From positions 1-47,169 of the forward strand of contig CAMOKZ010000001.1 of assembly GCA_946618155.1 (NCBI GenBank): DNA of 47,169 nt, written 5' to 3'. This stretch comes from an uncultured Lachnospiraceae bacterium. Lineage in GTDB: Bacteria; Bacillota; Clostridia; Lachnospirales; Lachnospiraceae. The notes below the pieces were generated by a model. The model did not search any database. It saw nothing but the letters and a program-made list of their open reading frames with translations, and was not told the DNA's origin. This document shows, in pieces, positions 19,306 through 38,000 of the stretch; the first letter of the stretch is position 1; each line of letters opens with the position of its first letter. Position numbers and translations under genes: made by a program.

Positions 19306-21321
19306 ATGGCCAAAAAGGAAATGACCACAAAAGATTTCCTGAAGGGAGTAGGTCTTGGCGTGGCGGCGCTCGCCATCGTTTTCGCCCTGGAGGGCGGCGA
19401 CCAGTACCTGCAGAATAAGAAAGCCGCTGCCGAGCAGGTGGCAGCCGCCGAGGCTGCTGCTGCGGCCGCAAAGGCGATGGGGGCCTCCGGCTCCTATACG
19501 GCCGGCACATACACGGCAAGCGCAAAGGGCATGGAGAGCGATGTCACCGTCACCATGACCTTCGATGAGACCAATATCACCAATGTAGAAGTTGACTCTT
19601 CCGGCGAGACGCCGGATATCGGCGCGGCTGCCGCCGACGACCTCGCTTCCGCCATCCTGACGGCGCAGAGCGACAAGTTCGACGGCGTATCCGGCGCGAC
19701 CGTCACCTCGGACGCTGCCCGTGCCGCCGCTGCCGCATGTATCGCCCAGGCCTCCGGCGAGGAAGTCCCCGCCGCGGAAACCGAAGCCGCTCCGGCCGAG
19801 GAAGCCGCCACGGAAGCGGTCGCCCCGGCTGCCGAAGCTGCCGGCGAAGAAGCTGCGACGGAAGCTGCCGCACCGGCCGCTGTCTCTGCAGGCGCCGCCT
19901 ACGTGCCCGGCACCTACACCGCCACCGCAAAGGGTCTGGAGAGCGACGTTACCGCTACCCTGACCTTCGACGAGACCTCCATCACGGACGTCGTCTTCGA
20001 TGTCTCCGGCGAGACCCAGGGCATCGGCACCGAGACCGGCGAGCCGCTGGCCGCCGCCATCCTGGAAGCCCAGAGCGCTGAGGTGGACGTCGTTGCCGGC
20101 GCCTCCATCACCTCCGGCGCTGCCCTCGAGGCTGCCGCCGACTGCATCGCCCAGGCCTCCGGCTCCGCTGCCGGCGAGGCTGTGGAAGCGGCCACCGAGG
20201 CCGTCGAAGCGGTCGCGGAAGCTGCAGAAGCAGTTACGGAAGCTGCCGAAGAAGTCCTGATCAGCGAGACCGAGATCATGGAAGTCGCGGAAGATCCCGT
20301 CGGCGCCGCTGCCTATGTGCCCGGCACCTACACTGCCGCTGCCAAGGGTCTGGAGAGCGACGTCACCGCTACCCTGACCTTCGACGAAAGCTCCATCACC
20401 GATGTCGTCTTCGATGTCTCCGGCGAGACCAAGGGCATCGGCACCGAGACCGGCGAACCGCTGGCCGCCGCCATCCTGGATGCCCAGAGCGCTGAGGTGG
20501 ACGTCATTGCCGGCGCCTCCATCACCTCCGGCGCCGCCCTCGAGGCTGCCGCCGACTGCATCGCCCAGGCCTCCGGCTCCGCTGCCGGCGAAGCTGTAGA
20601 AGCTGCCACCGAAGCGATCGAGGCTGCCCAAGCCGTTGAAGCTGCGACCGAGGCTGTCGAGGCCGTTGAAGCGGCCACTGAGGCTGTCGAAGCTGTTGAA
20701 GCGGCCACCGAGGCTGCTGCCGGCGCGCTCTACGTGCCCGGCACCTACACGGCCACCGCAAAGGGTCTGGAAAGCGATGTCACCGCTACCCTGACCTTTG
20801 ATGAAAGCGCCATCACCGATGTCTCCTTCGATGTATCCGGCGAGACCAAGGGCATCGGCACCGAGACCGGCGAGCCGCTGGCCGCCGCCATCCTGGAAGC
20901 CCAGAACGCTGAGGTAGACGTCATTGCCGGCGCCTCCATCACCTCCGGCGCTGCCCTCGAGGCTGCCGCCGACTGCATCGCCCAGGCCCTGACCGCCGGC
21001 GAAGATGCCGGTGAGGAAGCTGTAACGGAAGCCGCTGCTGCAGGCGCTGCGGGCTATACGCCGGGCACCTACACTGCCACCGCAAAGGGTCTGGAGAGCG
21101 ACGTCACCGCCACCCTGACCTTCGACGAGACCTCCATCACCGATGTCTCCTTCGACGTCTCCGGCGAGACCAAGGGCATCGGCACGGAAACGGGCGAGCC
21201 CCTGGCCGCCGCCATCCTGGATGCCCAGAGCGCCCAGGTGGACGTCATTGCAGGCGCTTCCATCACCTCCGGCGCCGCCCTTGAGGCTGCTGCAGACTGC
21301 ATCGCCCAGGCCGCGAAGTAA
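19306..21321 (+). CDS. membrane-anchored protein with five tandem FMN-binding domains
   Basis: I prefer the ATG at 19306 (MAKKEMTTKDFLKGVGLGVAALAIVFAL), with AAGGAGGA upstream. Each of the five modules starts Y(T/V)PGTYTA.AKG.ESDVT and carries a flavinylation-type motif: DGVSGATVTS once and DV(V/I)AGASITS four times. The modules are separated by Ala/Glu-rich linkers. Confidence 0.85.
   Translation: MAKKEMTTKDFLKGVGLGVAALAIVFALEGGDQYLQNKKAAAEQVAAAEAAAAAAKAMGASGSYTAGTYTASAKGMESDVTVTMTFDETNITNVEVDSSGETPDIGAAAADDLASAILTAQSDKFDGVSGATVTSDAARAAAAACIAQASGEEVPAAETEAAPAEEAATEAVAPAAEAAGEEAATEAAAPAAVSAGAAYVPGTYTATAKGLESDVTATLTFDETSITDVVFDVSGETQGIGTETGEPLAAAILEAQSAEVDVVAGASITSGAALEAAADCIAQASGSAAGEAVEAATEAVEAVAEAAEAVTEAAEEVLISETEIMEVAEDPVGAAAYVPGTYTAAAKGLESDVTATLTFDESSITDVVFDVSGETKGIGTETGEPLAAAILDAQSAEVDVIAGASITSGAALEAAADCIAQASGSAAGEAVEAATEAIEAAQAVEAATEAVEAVEAATEAVEAVEAATEAAAGALYVPGTYTATAKGLESDVTATLTFDESAITDVSFDVSGETKGIGTETGEPLAAAILEAQNAEVDVIAGASITSGAALEAAADCIAQALTAGEDAGEEAVTEAAAAGAAGYTPGTYTATAKGLESDVTATLTFDETSITDVSFDVSGETKGIGTETGEPLAAAILDAQSAQVDVIAGASITSGAALEAAADCIAQAAK
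19897..21318 (+). repeat. four near-identical tandem coding repeats (FMN-binding modules 2-5)
   Basis: Copies start at 19897, 20311, 20728 and 21052, giving periods of 414, 417 and 324 nt. The core of about 270 nt differs only at scattered, mostly third-codon positions. A more divergent first module lies at about 19491..19760. Confidence 0.85.
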
Positions 21322-21382
21322 GACGCGCCTCCGGTGTCCAACCTGCACAAAGGCTTTTTCGGTTTTTCGTTCACGCGGGACA

Positions 21383-25782: not shown

Positions 25783-27504
25783 TCAGACGAAGCGCTGCCG
25801 GCGGATGCGGCTGACGAGCTCGCGGTTGTCCTTGGTGCGCACGAACATGTTCAGGATATTCTCCACCGCTTCCTCGCCCTTGAGGCCGTTGAGGGCCTTG
25901 CGCATGATATAGACCGCCTCCAGCTCGTCCTTGTCCAGGAGCAGGTCTTCTCTGCGGGTCCCGGACTTCTGGATATCGATGGCCGGGAAAACGCGCCGCT
26001 CGGAGAGCTTCCGGTCAAGGACAAGCTCCATATTGCCCGTCCCCTTGAACTCTTCGTAGACCACGTCGTCCATCTTGCTGCCGGTGTCCACCAGCGCAGT
26101 GGCCAGGACCGTCAGGCTGCCGCCCTCGCGCATGTTGCGCGCCGCGCCGAAAAACCGCTTGGGCATATAGAGGGCCGCCGGGTCAAGACCGCCGGAAAGC
26201 GTTCTTCCGCTGGGCGGGACCGTGAGGTTGTACGCCCTGGCGAGCCTGGTGATGGAGTCCAGCAGGATCGTGACGTCCCTGTTGTGCTCGACCAGACGCT
26301 TCGCTCTCTCTATTCCCATCTCGGAGACCCGCTTGTGATGATCGGGCAGCTCGTCGAAGGTCGAATAGAGCACCTCCACGTTCGGCCCGGTGATGGCCTC
26401 CTTGATATCCGTGACCTCCTCCGGGCGCTCGTCGATGAGCATGATGATCACGGTCATCTCCGGATTGTTGCGCAGGATAGACCGCGCGATATCCTTGAGC
26501 AGGGTCGTCTTGCCGGCCTTGGGCGGGGAGACGATCATGCCCCTCTGCCCCTTGCCGATCGGCGAGATCAGGTCGACGATCCGCATGGCGACGTCATTTC
26601 CGCCGCGCTCCATGCGCAGCCGCTCATTCGGGAATACGGGCGTCATGTCCTCGAAGACATACCGCTTCTGCGCCTCGGAGGGCAGCATCCCGTTAATGCT
26701 CTTGACATAGAGAAGGGCGCCGAATTTCTCTCCCTGTCCGCGCACGCGCATGTTCCCGGTGATGTGGTCGCCGGTCTTCAGGCCGAACTTGCGGATCTGG
26801 GACGGGGAAACGTAGACGTCGTTCTCGCCGGACAGGTAGTTGTCGCAGCGGATGAAGCCGTACCCGTCGGCCATGACCTCCAGGATGCCGGCTGCCTGCT
26901 GTCCGCTGTCCAGCTCGGTCAGCTCTGAGGGCAGATGTTCCGCTCTCCCCTCCGGGCGCGGTGCCGGGCGCATGCCCTCTCCGCTCCGTACCGGGGCTCC
27001 TTCAGGCCGCTGGGCAGCGGGGCGCATCCCCTCGCCGCCCCGTACCGGGGCTCCTTCCGGGCGCTGGGCTGCAGGGCGCATCCCCTCGCCGCTCCTTGCC
27101 GGACCGGCCTGCCGCATGGGGGCTCTGCCTCTCTCCTGCCCGGGCTGCTGCGGACGCTGCCGCATGATGGGCCCTCTTCTTACGGGCGCGCCCTCTTTTC
27201 TTGCCTCTGCGGGAGCAGCCTCTTCCCGGGCCGCTGTGGCGCCCTTTGCGCGCTCACCTGCGGGAGAGCCCTCTTCCCGGACCGCTGCGGCACGCTTACC
27301 GCTTTCCGCAGACACACTGCCGCCCTCTGCGCCCCCTGCAGACGCCTGGGCCGCCGGCGCTTCCTGCCCGCGGCGCTGCTCGTCCTCCGCGCAGAGAAGG
27401 TCGATGAGATCGCCCTTTTTCATCGCGGACAGACCTTTGTGCCCGCGCAGTTTTGCCATTTCCTTAAGCGCTATGACAGACATAGCCAGATACTTTTCTC
27501 TCAT
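25783..27504 (-). CDS. rho: transcription termination factor Rho with a long low-complexity N-terminal insertion
   Basis: 573 aa. The order is a Rho_N helical domain ([26 protein letters not shown]), an Ala/Gly/Pro/Arg-rich insertion of about 160 aa, a cold-shock-like RNA-binding domain ([15 protein letters not shown]), then the RecA-type ATPase ([10 protein letters not shown]). GAGG RBS lies 6 nt upstream. Confidence 0.93.
26968..27100 (-). repeat. 54-nt tandem coding repeat inside the Rho insertion
   Basis: Copies start at 26968, 27022 and 27076 (plus-strand coordinates; the third is partial). They encode [17 protein letters not shown](G/S), about 2.4 times. Confidence 0.8.
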
Positions 27505-32178: not shown

Positions 32179-33108
32179 CTACTGCAGGAAGCCGTGAATG
32201 ATCATGTCTTCGGCTTCTTTTTCCGTCAGGCCCATGGTCATCAGCTTAGTCAGCTGCTCCCCGGCGATCTTGCCGATCGCCGCCTCATGGATGAGGGCCG
32301 CTTCCACATTGGTGGCCGTCAGCTTCGGCGTCGCGACGATCACGCCCTTGTCCATGATGATGGAGTCGCACTCCGCGTGACCGCTGCAGGCCGCGTTTCC
32401 GTCGATGGAGATCTCCACCTCCTGCCGGCTCTCCCCCTTGGCCACGCCGCGGCTGATCATATCGCAGGAGGATCCGTCGCCGTTGAGTTCGACGCTCAGC
32501 ACCGCTTTCGCGGTCTGGGTCCCCTCCGTCAGGATCTTGTCGTGTACGATCAGGGCGCTGCCCGCCGCCGCTTTGGCGCGGGTCACCCGAAGGGTATCGT
32601 TGATGCCGCCGATCTGGGAGGTCTCCAGCTCCATGCGGGAACCCTCCTCCAGTTCGATCACGGTGGTCGGGTTCATCAGGCGCTTTCCTGTCCCGGTCCC
32701 CTCGCCGTAATGCCGCTCAATGTATTTGACCCGGCTGTTCTTCCCCACATAAAAGGTATGGATGCCGTCGTGGCGGGAATCCTCGCCGCCGCAGTTGGAG
32801 ATGCCGCAGCCCGCGACGATGGTCACATCGCAGTCCTCGCCGATGAAAAAGTCATTGTAGACCATCTCCTTCAGGCCGCTCTGGCTGATGATCACTGGGA
32901 TGTGCACGCTCTGGTTCTTCGTGCCCGGCTTGATGATAATGTCGATGCCCGGCTTGTCCTGTTTCGTCACGATATCGATGGAAGCCGTCGTATTGCGCGC
33001 GGCGCTCTGCCCGTTGGCCCGGATATTGTAGGCCCCGACCGGCAGCGCGTCCAGCTCGGCTACTTCCTTCAGCAGGCTCTTCTGAATCGCATCCATCATT
33101 TCCGCCAT
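32179..33108 (-). CDS. SufB/SufD-family Fe-S cluster assembly protein (short form)
   Basis: I prefer the ATG at 33108 (MAEMMDAIQKS...), 1 nt after the sufC stop. The C-terminal signature is EAALIHEAAIGKIAGEQLTKLMTMGLTEKEAEDMIIHGF. Confidence 0.8.
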   Translation of the reverse strand: MAEMMDAIQKSLLKEVAELDALPVGAYNIRANGQSAARNTTASIDIVTKQDKPGIDIIIKPGTKNQSVHIPVIISQSGLKEMVYNDFFIGEDCDVTIVAGCGISNCGGEDSRHDGIHTFYVGKNSRVKYIERHYGEGTGTGKRLMNPTTVIELEEGSRMELETSQIGGINDTLRVTRAKAAAGSALIVHDKILTEGTQTAKAVLSVELNGDGSSCDMISRGVAKGESRQEVEISIDGNAACSGHAECDSIIMDKGVIVATPKLTATNVEAALIHEAAIGKIAGEQLTKLMTMGLTEKEAEDMIIHGFLQ

Positions 33109-33109
33109 C

Positions 33110-33862
33110 TTATCTGTCCTCCTTTTCCTGCGCGCCCTTCTGCAGCTGCGCACAGGCGCCTGCCGTCAGATCAATGGGCAGATGGGCCATGACCTTGCTG
33201 CCCTCGTCGTATTCGGCGATCCGGCCGTCCTTGAGATAAATGATCTTGTCCGCGATATCCAGGATGCGCTCCTGATGCGAAATGATCATGATCGTGCCGG
33301 ACGTCTCCCGGTAAAGGTTTTCAAATACGCGGATCAGGCTCTGGAAGCTCCACAGATCGATGCCCGCCTCCGGCTCGTCGAAGAGGGTCATCTTGGTCCC
33401 CCTTGCCGCCGCCATGGCGATCTCGATGCGCTTCATCTCGCCGCCGGAAAGGGTGTCGTCCAGTTCGCGGCCGATGTAATCCTTCGCGCACAGGCCCACT
33501 TCGCTGAGCACGTCGCAGGCGTGGCGGAAGCTCTCCTGCCCTTTCTTATCCTTGCCGCCGGCAAGCTCAAGCAGGTCGCGGACGCGCAGGCCCTTAAAGC
33601 GGACCGGCTGCTGGAAGGCGAAGCTGATGCCCCGGTTCGCCCTCTCCGTGATGGAAAGGTCCGTGATATCCTCCCCGTCCAGGTAGATTCTCCCCGTGGT
33701 CGGCTTAATGATGCCCATGATCACCTTGAGCAGCGTGGATTTGCCGCTGCCGTTCGGCCCGGTGACGGCGACAAAGCGGTCGTCCACGGTGAGGTTGATG
33801 TCTCTTAAGATCTCTTTGTCTTTCTCATCGGTAATAAACGATATATTTTCCAGTTTCAGCAT
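33110..33862 (-). CDS. sufC: Fe-S cluster assembly ATPase SufC
   Basis: I prefer the ATG at 33862 (MLKLENISF...), with AGGAG 5 nt upstream. It has Walker A GPNGSGKST, the signature LSGGEMKR and Walker B TLFDEPEAG. Confidence 0.88.
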   Translation of the reverse strand: MLKLENISFITDEKDKEILRDINLTVDDRFVAVTGPNGSGKSTLLKVIMGIIKPTTGRIYLDGEDITDLSITERANRGISFAFQQPVRFKGLRVRDLLELAGGKDKKGQESFRHACDVLSEVGLCAKDYIGRELDDTLSGGEMKRIEIAMAAARGTKMTLFDEPEAGIDLWSFQSLIRVFENLYRETSGTIMIISHQERILDIADKIIYLKDGRIAEYDEGSKVMAHLPIDLTAGACAQLQKGAQEKEDR

Positions 33863-33949
33863 GATATCTCCTGTTTCCAAGTTCGCAGACGATTTAACAG
33901 CAAAGGAAATCTTACCATTTTTCCCGCCGTTTGTACAGTCTGATTCCCG

Positions 33950-34465
33950 TCAGGCCTCGGCCCCCGGTCCGGGCGTCTCCTCCTCCGGGGTCTCTCCGGC
34001 TGCGGTCTCTTCCTCCGTTACGGTCGTTTCCGACACGGTCTCTTCCGCCGGTGCCTCACCTGTCGTTGCCGTGCGTTTGCCTTCCTTCCAGGCGGCGTAG
34101 GCTTCCAGCTCCGGTCCGCACAGCTTCAGCGCGCCCACCAGGACGGCGATGTCGTCAAGCCTGCCCAGGATGGGGACATTATCCGCGATCAGGTCTTTTT
34201 TCTTCACAAAATACAACACGGCGCTCACCATGCTGGCGATCACCTTCGGCGATACCTCGGTGTACTCGCGGGTAACGTAGTCCCTGATCATGGAGACCAT
34301 CAGCTTGACGTCCCTGAGGATATCCGCCACGCCGGGAACCTCGTTCACCTTCTCCTCCATCTGTCCGAGCAGATCCTTGATCTTCGAGGGATTCTGCAGC
34401 ATCTCCTGCGCTTCCCCGATGCTTTCATTGATCATCGCTTTTGCCTTGTCCAGTCCGATTTCCAT
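33950..34465 (-). CDS. DUF1232 (YkvA-like) protein with an acidic Thr/Glu-rich tail
   Basis: 171 aa. The core VLYFVKKKDLIADNVPILGRLDDIAVLVGAL matches the DUF1232 pattern (Y-F-x-P-x-D-L-I-P-D...G-x-x-D-D). It starts 64 nt after the RT stop, on the same strand. Confidence 0.7.
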   Translation of the reverse strand: MEIGLDKAKAMINESIGEAQEMLQNPSKIKDLLGQMEEKVNEVPGVADILRDVKLMVSMIRDYVTREYTEVSPKVIASMVSAVLYFVKKKDLIADNVPILGRLDDIAVLVGALKLCGPELEAYAAWKEGKRTATTGEAPAEETVSETTVTEEETAAGETPEEETPGPGAEA

Positions 34466-34529
34466 GGTTTTCCCTCCTTAAATTATGATAGATGGTAAAG
34501 TACAGATAATGATTAAAATGAACATGCTG

Positions 34530-35726
34530 TCATTCTGCTTCCGCATAGTATTCGTGCACCAGGCTCCTGTACCCCAGTGCCCTGATGTCCGCGTATCTGG
34601 CGTCAAACCGCCCCTTTGTCCGCTTCCCGGTCAGCAGATAACGGATGCAGTCCTGGGCGTAATGGTCGATCCGCCGCAGGCTTTCGTCTGTCGTGATCAT
34701 CGGGAAATACCAGCGCGACCAGGTAAGGTCCCTCTCCCCCGCGTTTTCCAGGAGCTTGCGGTTAAACACGCGGATAAAGGCCGTCGCGGCGTGCCTGCCC
34801 TCAAGGCCGTTCCTCTTCCTCCACCGCTCCAGCGCCCTTGTTTTCCTGCGCATCTTGCCCATGATCTTCCGGACGGAAGCGGGGGCGATGTCCACCTCGC
34901 CCTCCCTGTACCGATAGCCGAGGAAAACAAAGCCTTCCTGCGGCGGGGCCAGCACTTCCTTATCCGGGTTGACCTTCAGGCCCTTTCCGGCAAGGTGCGC
35001 CCTGACCTCCCGGGCCAGCTCCTCCGTCTCCCCGCGGGAGGGGGCAAAGAGGATGATGTCGTCGGAATAGCGGGCGTAGGGGATGTCCGTCCCGGCAAAT
35101 TTAAGATCCAGGTCCCGCAGGTAAAGGTTCGCGTAAAAGCAGGCCTGGGGCGTCCCCGCCATGATTCCCTTCTGCTCGGTGATCCGCTCTCCCCCGTCCA
35201 GCACCCGGGGCTCCCGCAGAAGTCCGCCCAGAAAGCCGAGCAGGGCGGGATCATCCGAAAGCGTCCGGGCAAGAAGAGGATAAAACGCATCGATATCGAT
35301 GGAATTGAAATAGTTGCTCACATCCGTTTTGTAGGACCAGAGCGCGCCGATCCCCGGCCTGCCGGACAGGGCGCGGAAGGCCTGCTGGGCACTGTGCCCC
35401 GGCCTGAAGGAGTGCAGGTTTTCCGGAAAAAGATGGTCGTACCGGCGAAGGAGAAGGTAGGTCAGGAGCTTCAGCACCATGGTGTGCGCCCGGGGATAGA
35501 CGTACACCGTCCGCTTCTTCTGGGTGCTCCGCTTGCTGATCGCGGCCTTCCGGGGAAGCGGAAACGGCTCCCCGGCCATGATTCCCGCGCAGACCGGAAG
35601 ATATTCTTCTTTGTCGATAAACGCGCGGAGCTCCTCCAGACGGCCGGACGGGCCGCCCAGGGAAGCCTTGTAGGCGTAATACCTCTCCCACTCTTCCCGG
35701 ACCGAAAGCAGATCAAGCAGAGACAT
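34530..35726 (-). CDS. free-standing reverse transcriptase (group-II-intron-like RT fold with thumb/X-like C-terminus, no intron RNA)
   Basis: 398 aa, with all seven RT blocks: KKRTVYVYP (1), HSFRPGHSAQQAF (2a), YKTDVSNYFNSID (3), GIMAGTPQACFYANLYL (4), YARYSDDIILF (5; YSDD codons at 35061..35072), LKVNPDKE (6) and FVFLGYRY (7). The roughly 100-aa C-terminus is helical and basic (RKIMGKMRRKTRALERW...WSRWYFPM...IDHYAQDCIRYL), like a thumb/maturase-X domain. AGGAG RBS lies 9 nt upstream. Confidence 0.85.
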   Translation of the reverse strand: MSLLDLLSVREEWERYYAYKASLGGPSGRLEELRAFIDKEEYLPVCAGIMAGEPFPLPRKAAISKRSTQKKRTVYVYPRAHTMVLKLLTYLLLRRYDHLFPENLHSFRPGHSAQQAFRALSGRPGIGALWSYKTDVSNYFNSIDIDAFYPLLARTLSDDPALLGFLGGLLREPRVLDGGERITEQKGIMAGTPQACFYANLYLRDLDLKFAGTDIPYARYSDDIILFAPSRGETEELAREVRAHLAGKGLKVNPDKEVLAPPQEGFVFLGYRYREGEVDIAPASVRKIMGKMRRKTRALERWRKRNGLEGRHAATAFIRVFNRKLLENAGERDLTWSRWYFPMITTDESLRRIDHYAQDCIRYLLTGKRTKGRFDARYADIRALGYRSLVHEYYAEAE

Positions 35727-35784
35727 TTACGGGTTCTCCTCTGTCAGTAAAGGGCCGATGCATACCTGCACCGGCCCGGTTGAA

Positions 35785-35829
35785 AAAGCGAAAAGAGAAA
35801 TCTTTAAATCCGGAGAAATTCTCCGGATT
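35785..35829 (-). terminator. terminator-like hairpin between the 145-aa ORF / structured segment and the RT gene
   Basis: Minus strand: AATCCGGAG, loop AATTT, CTCCGGATT (35829..35807). It is followed by the T-rich TAAAGATTTCTCTTTTCGCTTTTTC. It could be a true terminator, an attenuator or the 3' end of an ncRNA. Confidence 0.5.
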
Positions 35830-35996
35830 ACACGGGATCGTACACGGTCCGGCTGCCTGCGAAGCCTTCCGTCATGCAAAGGGGATACTCCCCTCTGCAC
35901 GCGGACCGTGCCGGACCCGCCGCAGGCGCAGCGCGTTCTCTTCCCGGTTTTTCCTGTTTCGGGAACGCAGGGCGTTCCGGGTAAGACAGGTCTTTC
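35830..35996 (-). ncRNA. candidate structured non-coding RNA or 3'UTR immediately upstream of the RT gene
   Basis: There is no credible ORF here. Hairpin 35962..35978 has a 7-bp stem. Hairpin 35876..35898 has a 10-bp stem whose single non-Watson-Crick pair is G-U on the minus strand but A-C on the plus strand. A 9-bp long-range helix joins 35843..35851 and 35902..35910. A crossing 7-bp complementarity joins 35855..35861 and 35921..35927. Confidence 0.35.
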
Positions 35997-36434
35997 TCAG
36001 AACGGAAATTTGTCCGGGGCGCTGTCGATTGCCTTGCGGATCCGTTCTCTCACATAAGAACGGGTATTCCACCAGCCGTGATGGTCATAATAGAAGCGAA
36101 GGTAGGGAATGCCCGCCTTTTCGCAGTTCCTGCGCATCCTCTGCGCTTCCGACGACTCGTTCATCAGCTCGATGATGACCGCTGCTTTGCCGTCCCGGGC
36201 CAGCGCATAGACCACGCCTCTCCCTTTTCTGATCTCGTCGCTCTCCACCTGATATTCCGGGAAATCCTCCCGGAAGATGTGCTCGAAATATTCCCGGTAG
36301 GTCCCGGGATAATTAAACTGGTTTTCCTCCTTCGGCATGTCCGGTCCCCAGGAAACGCCGGAAGGCGTATCCGGCTTGCCTCCTCCGCCGCCTTTGCCGG
36401 AGCCGCCGCCAAAAAGACCCGATAAAAATCCCAT
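35997..36434 (-). CDS. hypothetical 145-aa protein: Gly-rich N-terminus plus a possible endonuclease-fold core (DUF2726/DUF559-like, weak)
   Basis: I prefer the ATG at 36434 (MGFLSGLFGGGSGKGGGGGK...), with AAGGAG 7 nt upstream. The segment AAVIIELMNESSEAQRMRRNCEKAGIPYLRFYY resembles the (I/V)E(L/V)D...H...D...L...GxxxxRF core of Vsr-like endonuclease-fold domains, but the usual acidic and His residues are not all present. Confidence 0.5.
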   Translation of the reverse strand: MGFLSGLFGGGSGKGGGGGKPDTPSGVSWGPDMPKEENQFNYPGTYREYFEHIFREDFPEYQVESDEIRKGRGVVYALARDGKAAVIIELMNESSEAQRMRRNCEKAGIPYLRFYYDHHGWWNTRSYVRERIRKAIDSAPDKFPF

Positions 36435-36505
36435 CACTCTTCTCCTTAAAATCATAACTGTCTGGCTGCTCAGCGAAGACGGATCGCTCCGTCATGCCAA
36501 ATCCC

Positions 36506-36534
36506 AGTATACCACAAACCTCCCCTGCTGTCAT
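36506..36534 (-). promoter_or_regulatory. sigma-A promoter driving the 145-aa ORF and the downstream structured segment
   Basis: Minus strand: ATGACA (36534..36529, overlapping the upstream stop codon), a 17-nt spacer, then TGgTATACT (extended -10; TATACT at 36511..36506). Confidence 0.6.
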
Positions 36535-37886
36535 CCCGCGCCGACCTTTGCCCGGACAAACCGGTAATTGTCCCCGCCGGCGTTTTTCTCATACCACATG
36601 ATGTAGGGATACCCGGCATCGTATTCCTTCGAAGCCTCATTGTACTGCTGCACCGTACCGTAGAGGATGAGGGTATTCTCCTCCACATCATAGGAATAGG
36701 GCATCTCATAGTAGTGCCCGGCAAAGCTGCCGGCATTGTCCAGGGTGGAGAGATAATAATTCTCCCCTGTCCGCTGCGGGACAAGCTGCGTGTCCGCGGC
36801 CAGCGCGTTCAGCGCCGCCTCGTCTGCGCTTCCCGCGATCTCCGCCAGGATATCCTGCAGGTCGCTTCGCGTGACCAGGTTATAGTCCGTCCCGCCGGAG
36901 GAGGTGCTGACGATCCTGCTATCCTGGTCATGCCAGAGATAGGCATACAGGAAAAGCAGGTAGGCGCGGTCCTTCGCGGAGAGATCCTCCGCGGAAAAGT
37001 CCATCTCCTGCGCCGGCGCGTAATTCGTCCTGTACTTGCAGAGCATGGCGCCCATGGAGGCCAGTCGCGCGATATCCTCCTGCGACGGGGTAAAATAAGC
37101 CGTGTGGGTAATGTCAGGATCGATCCCGTGGCCAAAGCCGGTCTCCCCGCTTGCCGCATAGCCGTCCGCAGCGGCGCTGCTGCCCGTCTCCGTCTCCTCC
37201 CCCGGCTCTCTGCCGTCATCCAGGAGGCCGCCTGCGCTGAAGGTCACGCCGCCGGAATACCCGGTCTCGTCCGGCGCCAGCCCGTCATCGGCAATGCCGC
37301 CGATCCCGGCGCTCGTCCCGTCGTCAAACAGATAGAGCTCGCTGATGCAGGTATCGTCATATTTCGATCCCTTGCGTACGCCGTCTATCCGCACGCTAAC
37401 CACGCCGTCGCTGATGAGGGGTGCGGGAAACCAGACGGAATACCCGTTCTGCGCATCCGTAAAGCTGTTAGCCGTCAGGGAAAGATCCACCGTGAACGAC
37501 TGCCCGCCCGTGGAGAAGACAAGAGAGCTTGGCGCGTTGTTCTCGTAAAACAGCTTCTCGGATTTCAGGAAGCCGTTCCAGATCCTGGCGCCGGTGACGA
37601 CCGTCCCGGCCGGAATAAACAGCTGGACGGACTCGCCCGTCCCGACGCCCGGGGCGCCCTCGGTCCAGCAGGAGGACATGCTGTAATCCTGCAGGTTGGA
37701 CGGGCTGTGGTCATAGCCTTCTTCCCACAGCTGTGAGCTCGCCGTAAACTCCGTGGCGAAAAGATAATTTTCATAGGCCTGCGCCTGCATCGCCGAAGGC
37801 CCCGCCGCAAAAGCCGCCGCGGCAAAGGCCGCGGCAGCGGCAAGTGCCGCTTTTCTCTTCCCTGCACTATTCCTGTTCCTGCTCAT
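36531..37886 (-). CDS. secreted protein with an N-terminal discoidin/NADase-type glycan-binding-like domain
   Basis: 451 aa with a signal peptide (KRKAALAAAAAFAAAAFAAGPSAMQA). The domain pattern SSCWTEGAPGVGTGESVQL...IWNGFLKSEKLFYENNAPS...GSKYDDTCISELYLF matches the F5/8-type-C-like modules common in Firmicutes exoproteins. Confidence 0.6.
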   Translation of the reverse strand: MSRNRNSAGKRKAALAAAAAFAAAAFAAGPSAMQAQAYENYLFATEFTASSQLWEEGYDHSPSNLQDYSMSSCWTEGAPGVGTGESVQLFIPAGTVVTGARIWNGFLKSEKLFYENNAPSSLVFSTGGQSFTVDLSLTANSFTDAQNGYSVWFPAPLISDGVVSVRIDGVRKGSKYDDTCISELYLFDDGTSAGIGGIADDGLAPDETGYSGGVTFSAGGLLDDGREPGEETETGSSAAADGYAASGETGFGHGIDPDITHTAYFTPSQEDIARLASMGAMLCKYRTNYAPAQEMDFSAEDLSAKDRAYLLFLYAYLWHDQDSRIVSTSSGGTDYNLVTRSDLQDILAEIAGSADEAALNALAADTQLVPQRTGENYYLSTLDNAGSFAGHYYEMPYSYDVEENTLILYGTVQQYNEASKEYDAGYPYIMWYEKNAGGDNYRFVRAKVGAG

Positions 37887-38000
37887 CTTCCGGCTCCCCC
37901 TTTCTCTTTTTTCATTTTGTGCCGTGCCGGCCCGCGCCGGCTCCTGTCCCTTTCATTTTACTATGCCGGCACTGTCTTTTCCACCAGATCCTGCGGTTTG

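Follow-up and report, generated by a model that had tools for sequence, protein, structure and literature searches.

In this article, I describe a reverse transcriptase (RT) locus in an uncultured Lachnospiraceae bacterium (GCA_946618155.1, contig CAMOKZ010000001.1; the 47,169 nucleotides (nt) that were analysed are called the window throughout) in which a UG26-class RT, a small partner protein and a structured non-coding RNA (ncRNA) known to Rfam as RT-5 lie next to one another on the minus strand. This tripartite UG26/RT-5 identity can be regarded as very nearly certain, and the explanation that accounts best for the observations as a whole, which I consider probable and well short of secure, is that of a three-component UG26 system encoded in one minus-strand operon and engaged in RNA-templated synthesis of complementary DNA (cDNA). 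The parts had each been catalogued already, the UG26 RT class and its COG2852 partner in PADLOC and RT-5 in Rfam, and the locus is a typical member of its family. New here are the assignment of RT-5 to UG26, the near-obligate operon of three parts, an RNA structure that is backed by covariation and extends past the Rfam model (helix P1 and a pseudoknot), and the proposal of a specific invariant segment as candidate template together with a predicted product. In the literature, no functional work on UG26 was found, and nothing tying UG26 to RT-5. An earlier note on this DNA had called the RT an orphan and the arrangement a possible undescribed variant; both descriptions have to be given up, since the RT is a catalogued UG26 enzyme, the small protein is its recorded partner, both proteins are in PADLOC and the RNA is the RT-5 motif of Weinberg et al. 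(2017). The three components, in the order in which they would be transcribed, are:

35997..36434, minus strand: small partner protein of 145 amino acids (aa), with the N-terminal sequence MGFLSGLFG, then a disordered linker rich in Gly and a ~115-aa conserved core
35787..35948, minus strand: structured ncRNA of 162 nt, bounded by the two strands of P1 (Rfam, covariance model, covariation)
34530..35726, minus strand: UG26-class reverse transcriptase of 398 aa with a YSDD active site (PADLOC, Pfam, AlphaFold2 (AF2) model)

The reverse transcriptase and its partner protein

On profile evidence, the RT is a full-length member of the UG26 group of the UG/Abi reverse transcriptases, a group listed within class 2 of that family (Mestre et al. 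2022, NAR, PMC9226505). The PADLOC model RT_UG26 matches residues 1-396 on profile positions 1-395 of 398, with an expect value (E) of 1.8e-161 and 535 bits, far above the 99 bits of the runner-up PADLOC RT model, and the RT_UG17 profile reaches only E 4e-25. Pfam recognizes RVT_1 alone (E 5.8e-17) and no fused further domain. The 398-aa open reading frame (ORF) with an intact YSDD box, as first read from the sequence, thus stands: the tetrapeptide occupies residues 220-223 and is unchanged across 22 homologues, and the LVHEYY sequence close to the C-terminus (Y393/Y394) is also invariant among homologues. A ribosome-binding site, GAGGAG (35741..35736), sits 9 nt 5' of the ORF. The AF2 model of the protein, with a predicted local distance difference test score (pLDDT) of 89, comprises the RT fingers/palm, the thumb and a helical C-terminus, and its closest folds over the whole length are the GsI-IIC group II intron RT (template modelling (TM) score 0.75) and G2L4 (TM 0.73), with DRT9 (TM 0.66) and DRT2 (TM 0.59) as weaker matches than the group II RTs. 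A profile search of the PDB agrees with the fold search, placing group II intron RTs on top (E 1.6e-27), and NCBI labels the homologues 'group II intron reverse transcriptase domain-containing protein'. On structural grounds, the epithet 'group-II-like' in the earlier note was well chosen.

The small protein is, by a full-length profile match (RTasCOG2852 of PADLOC, E 8e-53, 177 bits), the recorded UG26 partner, namely cluster 1531, 'COG2852', described as YcjD/Vsr-like by Mestre et al. (2022). Its longest ORF would encode 152 aa from an ATG at 36455; the protein is taken here to be 145 aa because an AGGAG site sits within the first codons of the longer version and because public gene calls begin at the ATG at 36434, which is also the length that had been proposed from the sequence, Gly-rich N-terminus included. 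The N-terminal motif MG[LF][LF]SKL[FL]G is kept throughout the family (36408..36434 in the window) and is followed by a disordered linker of 10-90 aa; as an aside, the motif has the look of a tethered peptide for docking or membrane binding. The residues that do not vary are E36, Q39, Y49, F50, E89, Y111, R113, Y115 and a GWWNT sequence. The AF2 model (pLDDT 83) predicts an alpha-beta-beta-beta-alpha-beta-alpha core, which is a restriction-endonuclease-like topology and in keeping with the weak endonuclease-fold-like core that had been suspected.

The small-protein domain also occurs in other architectures. Some homologues (among P0241-P0245, P0346, P0352, P0333 and P0329) carry 2-4 tandem copies, and in others a zinc ribbon or a bacterial PH-like (bPH) region stands at the N-terminus, separated from the domain by a long linker of low complexity. 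None of these fusion partners, whether zinc ribbon, bPH or tandem copies, gave a clue to function.

The RT-5 RNA and a near-obligate operon

RT-5 is one of the motifs RT-1 to RT-19 that were found next to RT genes, for which only a generic guess of a retron or diversity-generating retroelement (DGR) function was offered (Weinberg et al. 2017, PMC5737381). The segment between the small ORF and the RT, suspected early on to be structured, matches the Rfam model RF03026 over all of its positions (1-104 of 104) with 78.8 bits against a gathering score of 45.7 (E 6e-14 over the whole window), and a covariance model built in this analysis scores the same RNA at 118.6 bits. Folding of the single sequence gives a z-score of -6.2 and recovers helices P1 and P3. 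Its elements, all on the minus strand, are as follows:

35795..35931: match to Rfam RT-5 (RF03026), 78.8 bits
35936..35948: P1 5' strand, ACCGGGAAGAGAA, which pairs with 35787..35799 and lies outside the Rfam model
35921..35927: pseudoknot 5' strand, GCCUGCG, complementary to the loop at 35855..35861
35867..35903: variable linker inside P2, enlarged in the window copy by a 29-nt insertion which has a small hairpin of its own
35855..35862: apical loop of hairpin P2d, UCGCAGGC, providing the pseudoknot 3' strand
35809..35828: hairpin P3, directly 5' of the invariant UUUAA; a candidate template-boundary helix by inferred role
35800..35808: single-stranded junction J3/1, UUUAAAGAU, in which UUUAA is invariant by column conservation; candidate template
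35787..35799: P1 3' strand, UUCUCUUUUCGCU, followed by a U-rich tail

Comparative evidence indicates that the ncRNA is a three-way junction, closed by the 13-base-pair helix P1 and holding the hairpin P3 and a long P2; the apical loop of P2 pairs with the 5' junction to make a pseudoknot. The Rfam structure line for RT-5 holds neither the P1 helix nor the pseudoknot pairs, and it counts the P2 linker, which differs in length and sequence among loci, as an insertion. In the consensus of a 72-sequence alignment, the purine-rich 5' strand of P1 (AACAGAAAGAGAA) pairs with a pyrimidine-rich 3' strand (UUCUCUUUCUGUU) over 13 base pairs, and the 5' junction GCCUGCG is complementary to CGCAGGC in the P2d apical loop over 7. 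Covariation was assessed on these 72 aligned sequences and 44 pairs, with 500 shuffles for comparison:

P1: 13 pairs, 11 with changes on both sides; 93% of cells paired
Pseudoknot: 7 pairs, 3 with changes on both sides; 100% of cells paired (all 72 sequences)
P2: 13 pairs, 10 with changes on both sides; 93.6% of cells paired
P2d: 4 pairs, 4 with changes on both sides; 90.6% of cells paired
P3: 7 pairs, 7 with changes on both sides; 91.4% of cells paired

Over the whole structure, 35 of the 44 pairs are doubly changed and 93.9% of cells are paired, as against 84% in the shuffles, none of which (0/500) reached the observed value; when the 3' partners are slid by 1-3 columns, only 37-48% of cells can pair. 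The compensatory changes in the pseudoknot include U-A to C-G (4 sequences) and C-G to U-A. The bases that neither pair nor change are GC after P1, AC inside P2, GUA between P2 and P3 and, most notably, UUUAA between P3 and P1, the last of these unchanged in 72/72 sequences and followed by four variable bases and then an invariant UU. Directly after the P1 5' strand there is in addition a near-invariant GAACGC.

The three parts travel together. At E<=1e-10 the RT has 2587 relatives, the best 120 of them 59-65% identical to the window RT, and relatives are present in 542 of 185,579 species genomes, a patchy species distribution which sets the cassette apart as an accessory one. For the comparison of loci, 80 were fetched, almost all from rumen or gut Clostridia (Oscillospiraceae, Lachnospiraceae, Ruminococcus), and 75 were informative in that enough upstream DNA was available. 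Cultured carriers in the set include Ruminococcus flavefaciens MA2007 and YL228 (L004, L029). In 70 of the 75 informative loci (~93%) the RT is directly preceded, on its own strand, by a small ORF, and the ncRNA lies between small ORF and RT in 73 (~97%). Rfam RT-5 was above threshold in 12/12 other UG26 loci tested, at 75-93 bits. The reverse route, a pattern scan of metagenomes for the RNA followed by an nhmmer filter, returned 126 matches, of which 28 were real and the rest mostly GC-rich chance; the small ORF accompanies the RNA at 28/28 of the real ones and the RT at 26/26 with enough contig. The layout of small protein, structured RNA and RT that the earlier note had described is therefore kept in other loci, as far as these three parts go; the DUF1232 gene that it had listed with them is found next to none of the 80.

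The spacing is tight, with a median of 18 nt from the small-ORF stop to the RNA and of 27 nt from the RNA to the RT ATG, which leaves no space for a separate RT promoter in most loci and makes of the three parts one operon; they are probably co-transcribed on the minus strand. Judged by gene order across genomes, this operon is near-obligate and its order fixed. There are instructive departures from it, in that gaps between RNA and RT reach 581 nt, one locus (L002, 2073..2653) has an additional ORF of ~190 aa separating RNA from RT, and another (L067, 7771..8288) has small ORF and RNA 3' of the RT on the opposite strand, and from these it appears that the RNA need not adjoin the RT start codon to function. 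Other Rfam matches in the related loci, a Gut-1 RNA beside a transfer RNA (tRNA) gene (L028, 3272..3348) and a T-box leader (L067, 1832..2061), are unrelated to the RT system.

These figures extend the description by Mestre et al. (2022), who recorded the COG2852/YcjD-like partner in 9/35 UG26 members and reported no ncRNA (PMC9226505). The window locus shares with theirs full-length profile matches for both proteins, an unfused RT and an adjacent partner gene; it differs in that the partner is here nearly constant, an RNA is present and the family is far larger. With the RT-5 of Rfam it shares the full 104-position model and the adjacent RT gene.

The proposed template and its competitors

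All characterised class 2 UG/Abi RTs (DRT2, Drt3a, DRT9, DRT10) turn a short template within a dedicated ncRNA into repetitive DNA, and it is from this that a template role for RT-5 is inferred. The templates of class 2 DRT systems are short and single-stranded, lie between two anchored stem-loops and are arranged as A-B-A' (10.1101/2025.10.16.682844; 10.64898/2026.06.29.735271), and the products range from those of rolling-circle synthesis in DRT2 and poly-dA in DRT9 to poly-(dTdG) made by Drt3a and 7-9-nt tandem repeats in DRT10, whose telomerase-like, protein-primed reaction runs on an A-B-A' template with a Ser or Tyr in the C-terminal region as primer (10.1101/2025.10.16.682844, 10.64898/2026.04.29.721553, 10.64898/2026.06.29.735271). 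By analogy, RT-5 may well be both scaffold and template of the UG26 RT, and the odds seem to me to lean that way: the RT would bind the RNA and copy a short single-stranded template within it into cDNA. The likeliest template would be the invariant junction between P3 and P1, 5'-UUUAAAGA-3' (35801..35808), where the pattern UUUAAnGnn is followed by a UU(U) that recurs 8 nt downstream, both copies being invariant. Its parts would be A = UUU, B = AAAGA and A' = UUU (35798..35800), the UU(U) that opens P1 would serve as the realignment site, and the predicted product would consist of 8-nt tandem repeats of the unit 5'-TCTTTAAA-3'. This specific choice of J3/1 with a repetitive product is tentative, and I would sooner expect it to need revision than to hold. 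The small protein may then act on the cDNA product or respond to it, as an effector nuclease or as a DNA binder, and the biological role may be protection from phages or other mobile DNA, a proposal for which the scales hang level.

Among the studied systems DRT10 (UG17) offers a parallel, since it too is tripartite: in both, a class 2 RT of ~400-450 aa comes with an ncRNA and a small protein that is not an RT. At ~140 nt the two ncRNAs are alike in length, and each has a basal closing stem and a short single-stranded segment between two helices, in UG26 with a candidate A-B-A'-like pattern, and where DRT10 has its priming Ser/Tyr near the C-terminus UG26 has invariant hydroxyl residues (Y393/Y394). 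The differences are as plain. The DRT10 partner is a SLATT membrane protein, whereas that of UG26 is predicted to be a soluble nuclease-fold protein and no SLATT gene is found here; the order is ncRNA-SLATT-RT in the one and protein-ncRNA-RT in the other; the DRT10 template loop is poorly conserved, whereas the UUUAA of the UG26 candidate is invariant; and DRT10 resides in defence islands of Proteobacteria, UG26 in housekeeping contexts of Clostridia. DRT9 (UG28) and DRT2 (UG2) are likewise class 2 RTs whose upstream ncRNA scaffolds and templates the cDNA, and the DRT9 ncRNA is also strongly conserved in sequence, but both are two-component systems with no obligatory partner, and their products are poly-dA (DRT9) and a ~120-nt concatemer (DRT2).

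A number of observations weigh against this account or parts of it. The placement in class 2 is taken from the published phylogeny (Mestre et al. 2022) and the PADLOC profile, and in sequence and fold G2L4 and the group II intron RTs stand nearer to the RT than DRT9 or DRT2 do. The proposed A' lies within helix P1, and a second A-B-A'-like pattern, GUAC-GAUCCC-GU (35831..35843), makes the template assignment ambiguous; with this GUAC site as template, the product would instead be repeats of GGGATCGTAC. Three loci (L044, L061, L065) have RNA and RT and no small ORF, nor does an alternative partner protein appear in any of them, and two RTs (L008, L027) are solitary, without RNA or small protein. 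As to the effector, the canonical D...(D/E)xK motif is absent from the small protein, Pfam finds no domain in it and no DUF559 or Vsr match in 30 family members, and sequence and profile searches of the PDB gave no significant match. Foldseek with the model returned nothing below E 1e-3, the top match being a weak one to the EcoT38I endonuclease (E 0.029, TM 0.32), and an exhaustive profile search of 1.84 billion representative proteins produced 241 matches that all belong to the same narrow family. Because Pfam, PDB, Foldseek and the exhaustive search all failed to reach DUF559/Vsr, the fold assignment is tentative, and the nuclease label putative, if plausible. A defence role meets further difficulties: its prediction for UG26 was rated 'inconclusive' (Mestre et al. 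2022, PMC9226505), heterogeneous housekeeping genes make up the 141 immediate neighbours in the 80 loci, with no family occurring more than 4 times, no defence-island enrichment is seen among them and PADLOC matches are sporadic, no relative of the RT was found in 2.9 million viral contigs (IMG/VR), and the guanine-plus-cytosine (GC) content of the cassette is the same as that of its flanks. Housekeeping neighbours, viral absence and flank-like GC together mean that there is no contextual evidence for defence or mobility. Six viral matches to the RNA pattern were considered as possible viral copies of the RNA and dismissed as chance.

The same facts invite other explanations. The RNA could be a cis-acting leader, with the RT binding its own 5' untranslated region to control translation or stability while doing its work elsewhere, for example in G2L4-like DNA repair with the nuclease-fold protein as repair partner, so that the whole would be a housekeeping device. 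Group II intron proteins bind DIVa, a precedent for an RT that binds its own 5' untranslated region. Such a leader would fit an RNA end that usually lies 10-30 nt 5' of the RT start codon, the top sequence and fold matches to group II intron RTs and G2L4, with which the RT shares whole-protein matches that include the N-terminal extension and the thumb/C-terminal region, and the setting of housekeeping neighbours, flank-like GC and no viral copies. It fits poorly with the 130-581 nt of unrelated DNA, or even a whole ORF, that are tolerated between RNA and RT, with the one case on the opposite strand and with an RNA that is tied equally or more tightly to the small-ORF stop than to the RT. A three-way junction of ~130 nt that has a pseudoknot and unpaired bases of 100% invariance exceeds the needs of known translational operators, the patchy spread is at odds with a core repair function, and G2L4 differs in having no dedicated ncRNA or partner gene. 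I rate a cis-acting leader as unlikely, if deserving of attention. A related alternative accepts cDNA synthesis and gives it another purpose: UG26/RT-5 would be a non-defence, chromosomal and non-mobile RT-RNA machine of rumen and gut Clostridia, which makes telomerase-like short tandem repeats from the UUUAA junction and, together with its nuclease-fold partner, serves the cell in housekeeping or under stress, for instance by repairing DNA or maintaining the chromosome. In this full form it must be considered quite unlikely, more so than the leader.

A retron-like mode of action is a shade less likely still. Here P1 would act as the a1/a2 repeats, a conserved G beside P1 would prime through its 2'-OH, and a branched multicopy single-stranded DNA (msDNA), present as a single copy, would restrain the small protein. 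With retrons the locus does share an ncRNA just 5' of the RT in one transcript, a long stem joining both RNA ends and an adjacent accessory gene, and one might add the near-invariant GAACGC after the P1 5' strand and the guess, made by Weinberg et al. (2017, PMC5737381), that retron RNAs account for many of the RT motifs. Yet the RT fails the retron profiles, scoring 39.7 bits with NCBIfam retron_St85_RT (NF038233) against a cut-off of 235 and about E 1e-8 with the PADLOC retron RT models, and the NAxxH and VTG signatures are absent from its sequence, as had been noticed from the start; the three-way junction, the conserved pseudoknot and the invariant junction are unlike msr/msd and have no retron counterpart. 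Least credible of all, and close to dismissal, is the reading of the locus as what is left of a mobile group II intron, whether decayed or reduced to its ORF, or as a DGR RT with its repeats elsewhere. The NCBI naming of the homologues and the group-II-like fold are what speaks for it. Against an intron stand the score with TIGR04416, 90 bits where maturase level demands 300, and the covariance search proposed in the earlier note, which detected no intron RNA, either in 33000..38000 with E<=1 as the limit or in the whole window with the gathering score. The non-coding flanks of the RT ORF, 270 nt upstream (35727..35996) and 64 nt downstream (34466..34529), are indeed too short for one, as that note had argued. 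Its statement that there is no pair of template and variable repeats (TR/VR) and no Avd-like gene also held, as no repeat in the 47 kb involves the locus and no neighbour is Avd-like, and DGR RT structures are a poorer match to the model (TM ~0.6). Decay can be set aside because hundreds of species have kept the family at 55-65% identity, its active site intact and its dedicated RNA and partner still alongside.

Surroundings of the locus and implications

Beyond the three components, the following local elements were considered:

36506..36534, minus strand: promoter-like site (ATGACA, 17-nt spacer, TG-TATACT) 5' of the small ORF; candidate operon promoter
35752..35777, minus strand: GC-rich hairpin, 3' of the RNA and 5' of the RT ribosome-binding site; window-specific
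33950..34465, minus strand: DUF1232 gene (Pfam), 3' of the RT on the same strand

The extended -10 promoter claimed in the earlier note is borne out as a consensus match, with 10/12 positions plus the TG in a consensus scan (36534..36506), but the statistical weight is weak because 2 such sites were found where 1.0 +/- 1.1 are expected. The hairpin that had been likened to a terminator exists; as a conserved terminator or attenuator it was rejected, being neither called by a terminator scan nor conserved in the 72-sequence alignment. A second promoter-like site (34506..34533, minus strand; ATGACA, 16-nt spacer, CATTAT) overlaps the RT stop codon 5' of the DUF1232 gene and suggests a separate transcription unit for it. 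The DUF1232 gene comes after the RT on its strand, as had been reported, and was rejected as a part of the system on account of its own promoter-like site and its absence from the other loci. On the 5' side of the operon lies a gene for a 451-aa protein (36531..37886, minus strand) with an NADase-translocation / F5/8 type C glycan-binding domain (PF25302, E 3e-22; NF047619), which was likewise rejected as a component (0/80 loci). No tRNA genes were found.

Further neighbours in the window include Suf proteins, sugar ABC transport genes, a hexokinase and Rho, and those in other loci HD-domain, beta-lactamase-fold and sigma-factor genes, a biotin ligase and an aminotransferase. Two repeat-bearing genes of the window may be mentioned in passing. 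The 573-aa product of the ORF at 25783..27504 (minus strand), publicly called Rho (Rho_RNA_bind and ATP-synt_ab), has a repetitive N-terminal insertion, the 5' part of the gene holding three 54-nt and two 51-nt tandem copies (26963..27124 and 27188..27289). At 19488..21347, five copies of a 300-nt unit, 69-94% identical and spaced ~324-417 nt apart, lie within a long ORF and are surrounded by 49-nt GC-rich repeats; this ORF probably encodes a repeat-domain surface protein.

Returning to the three-component system, each of the class 2 relatives studied so far, DRT2, DRT3, DRT9 and DRT10, proved to have an unusual mechanism of DNA synthesis. Now considering that hundreds of Clostridia genomes present UG26 without a defence-island or phage context, this RT may work outside immunity, which would be the more interesting outcome if true. 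Either way, UG26 has become experimentally approachable, as a well-defined class 2 RT system in an unusually non-defence-like setting.

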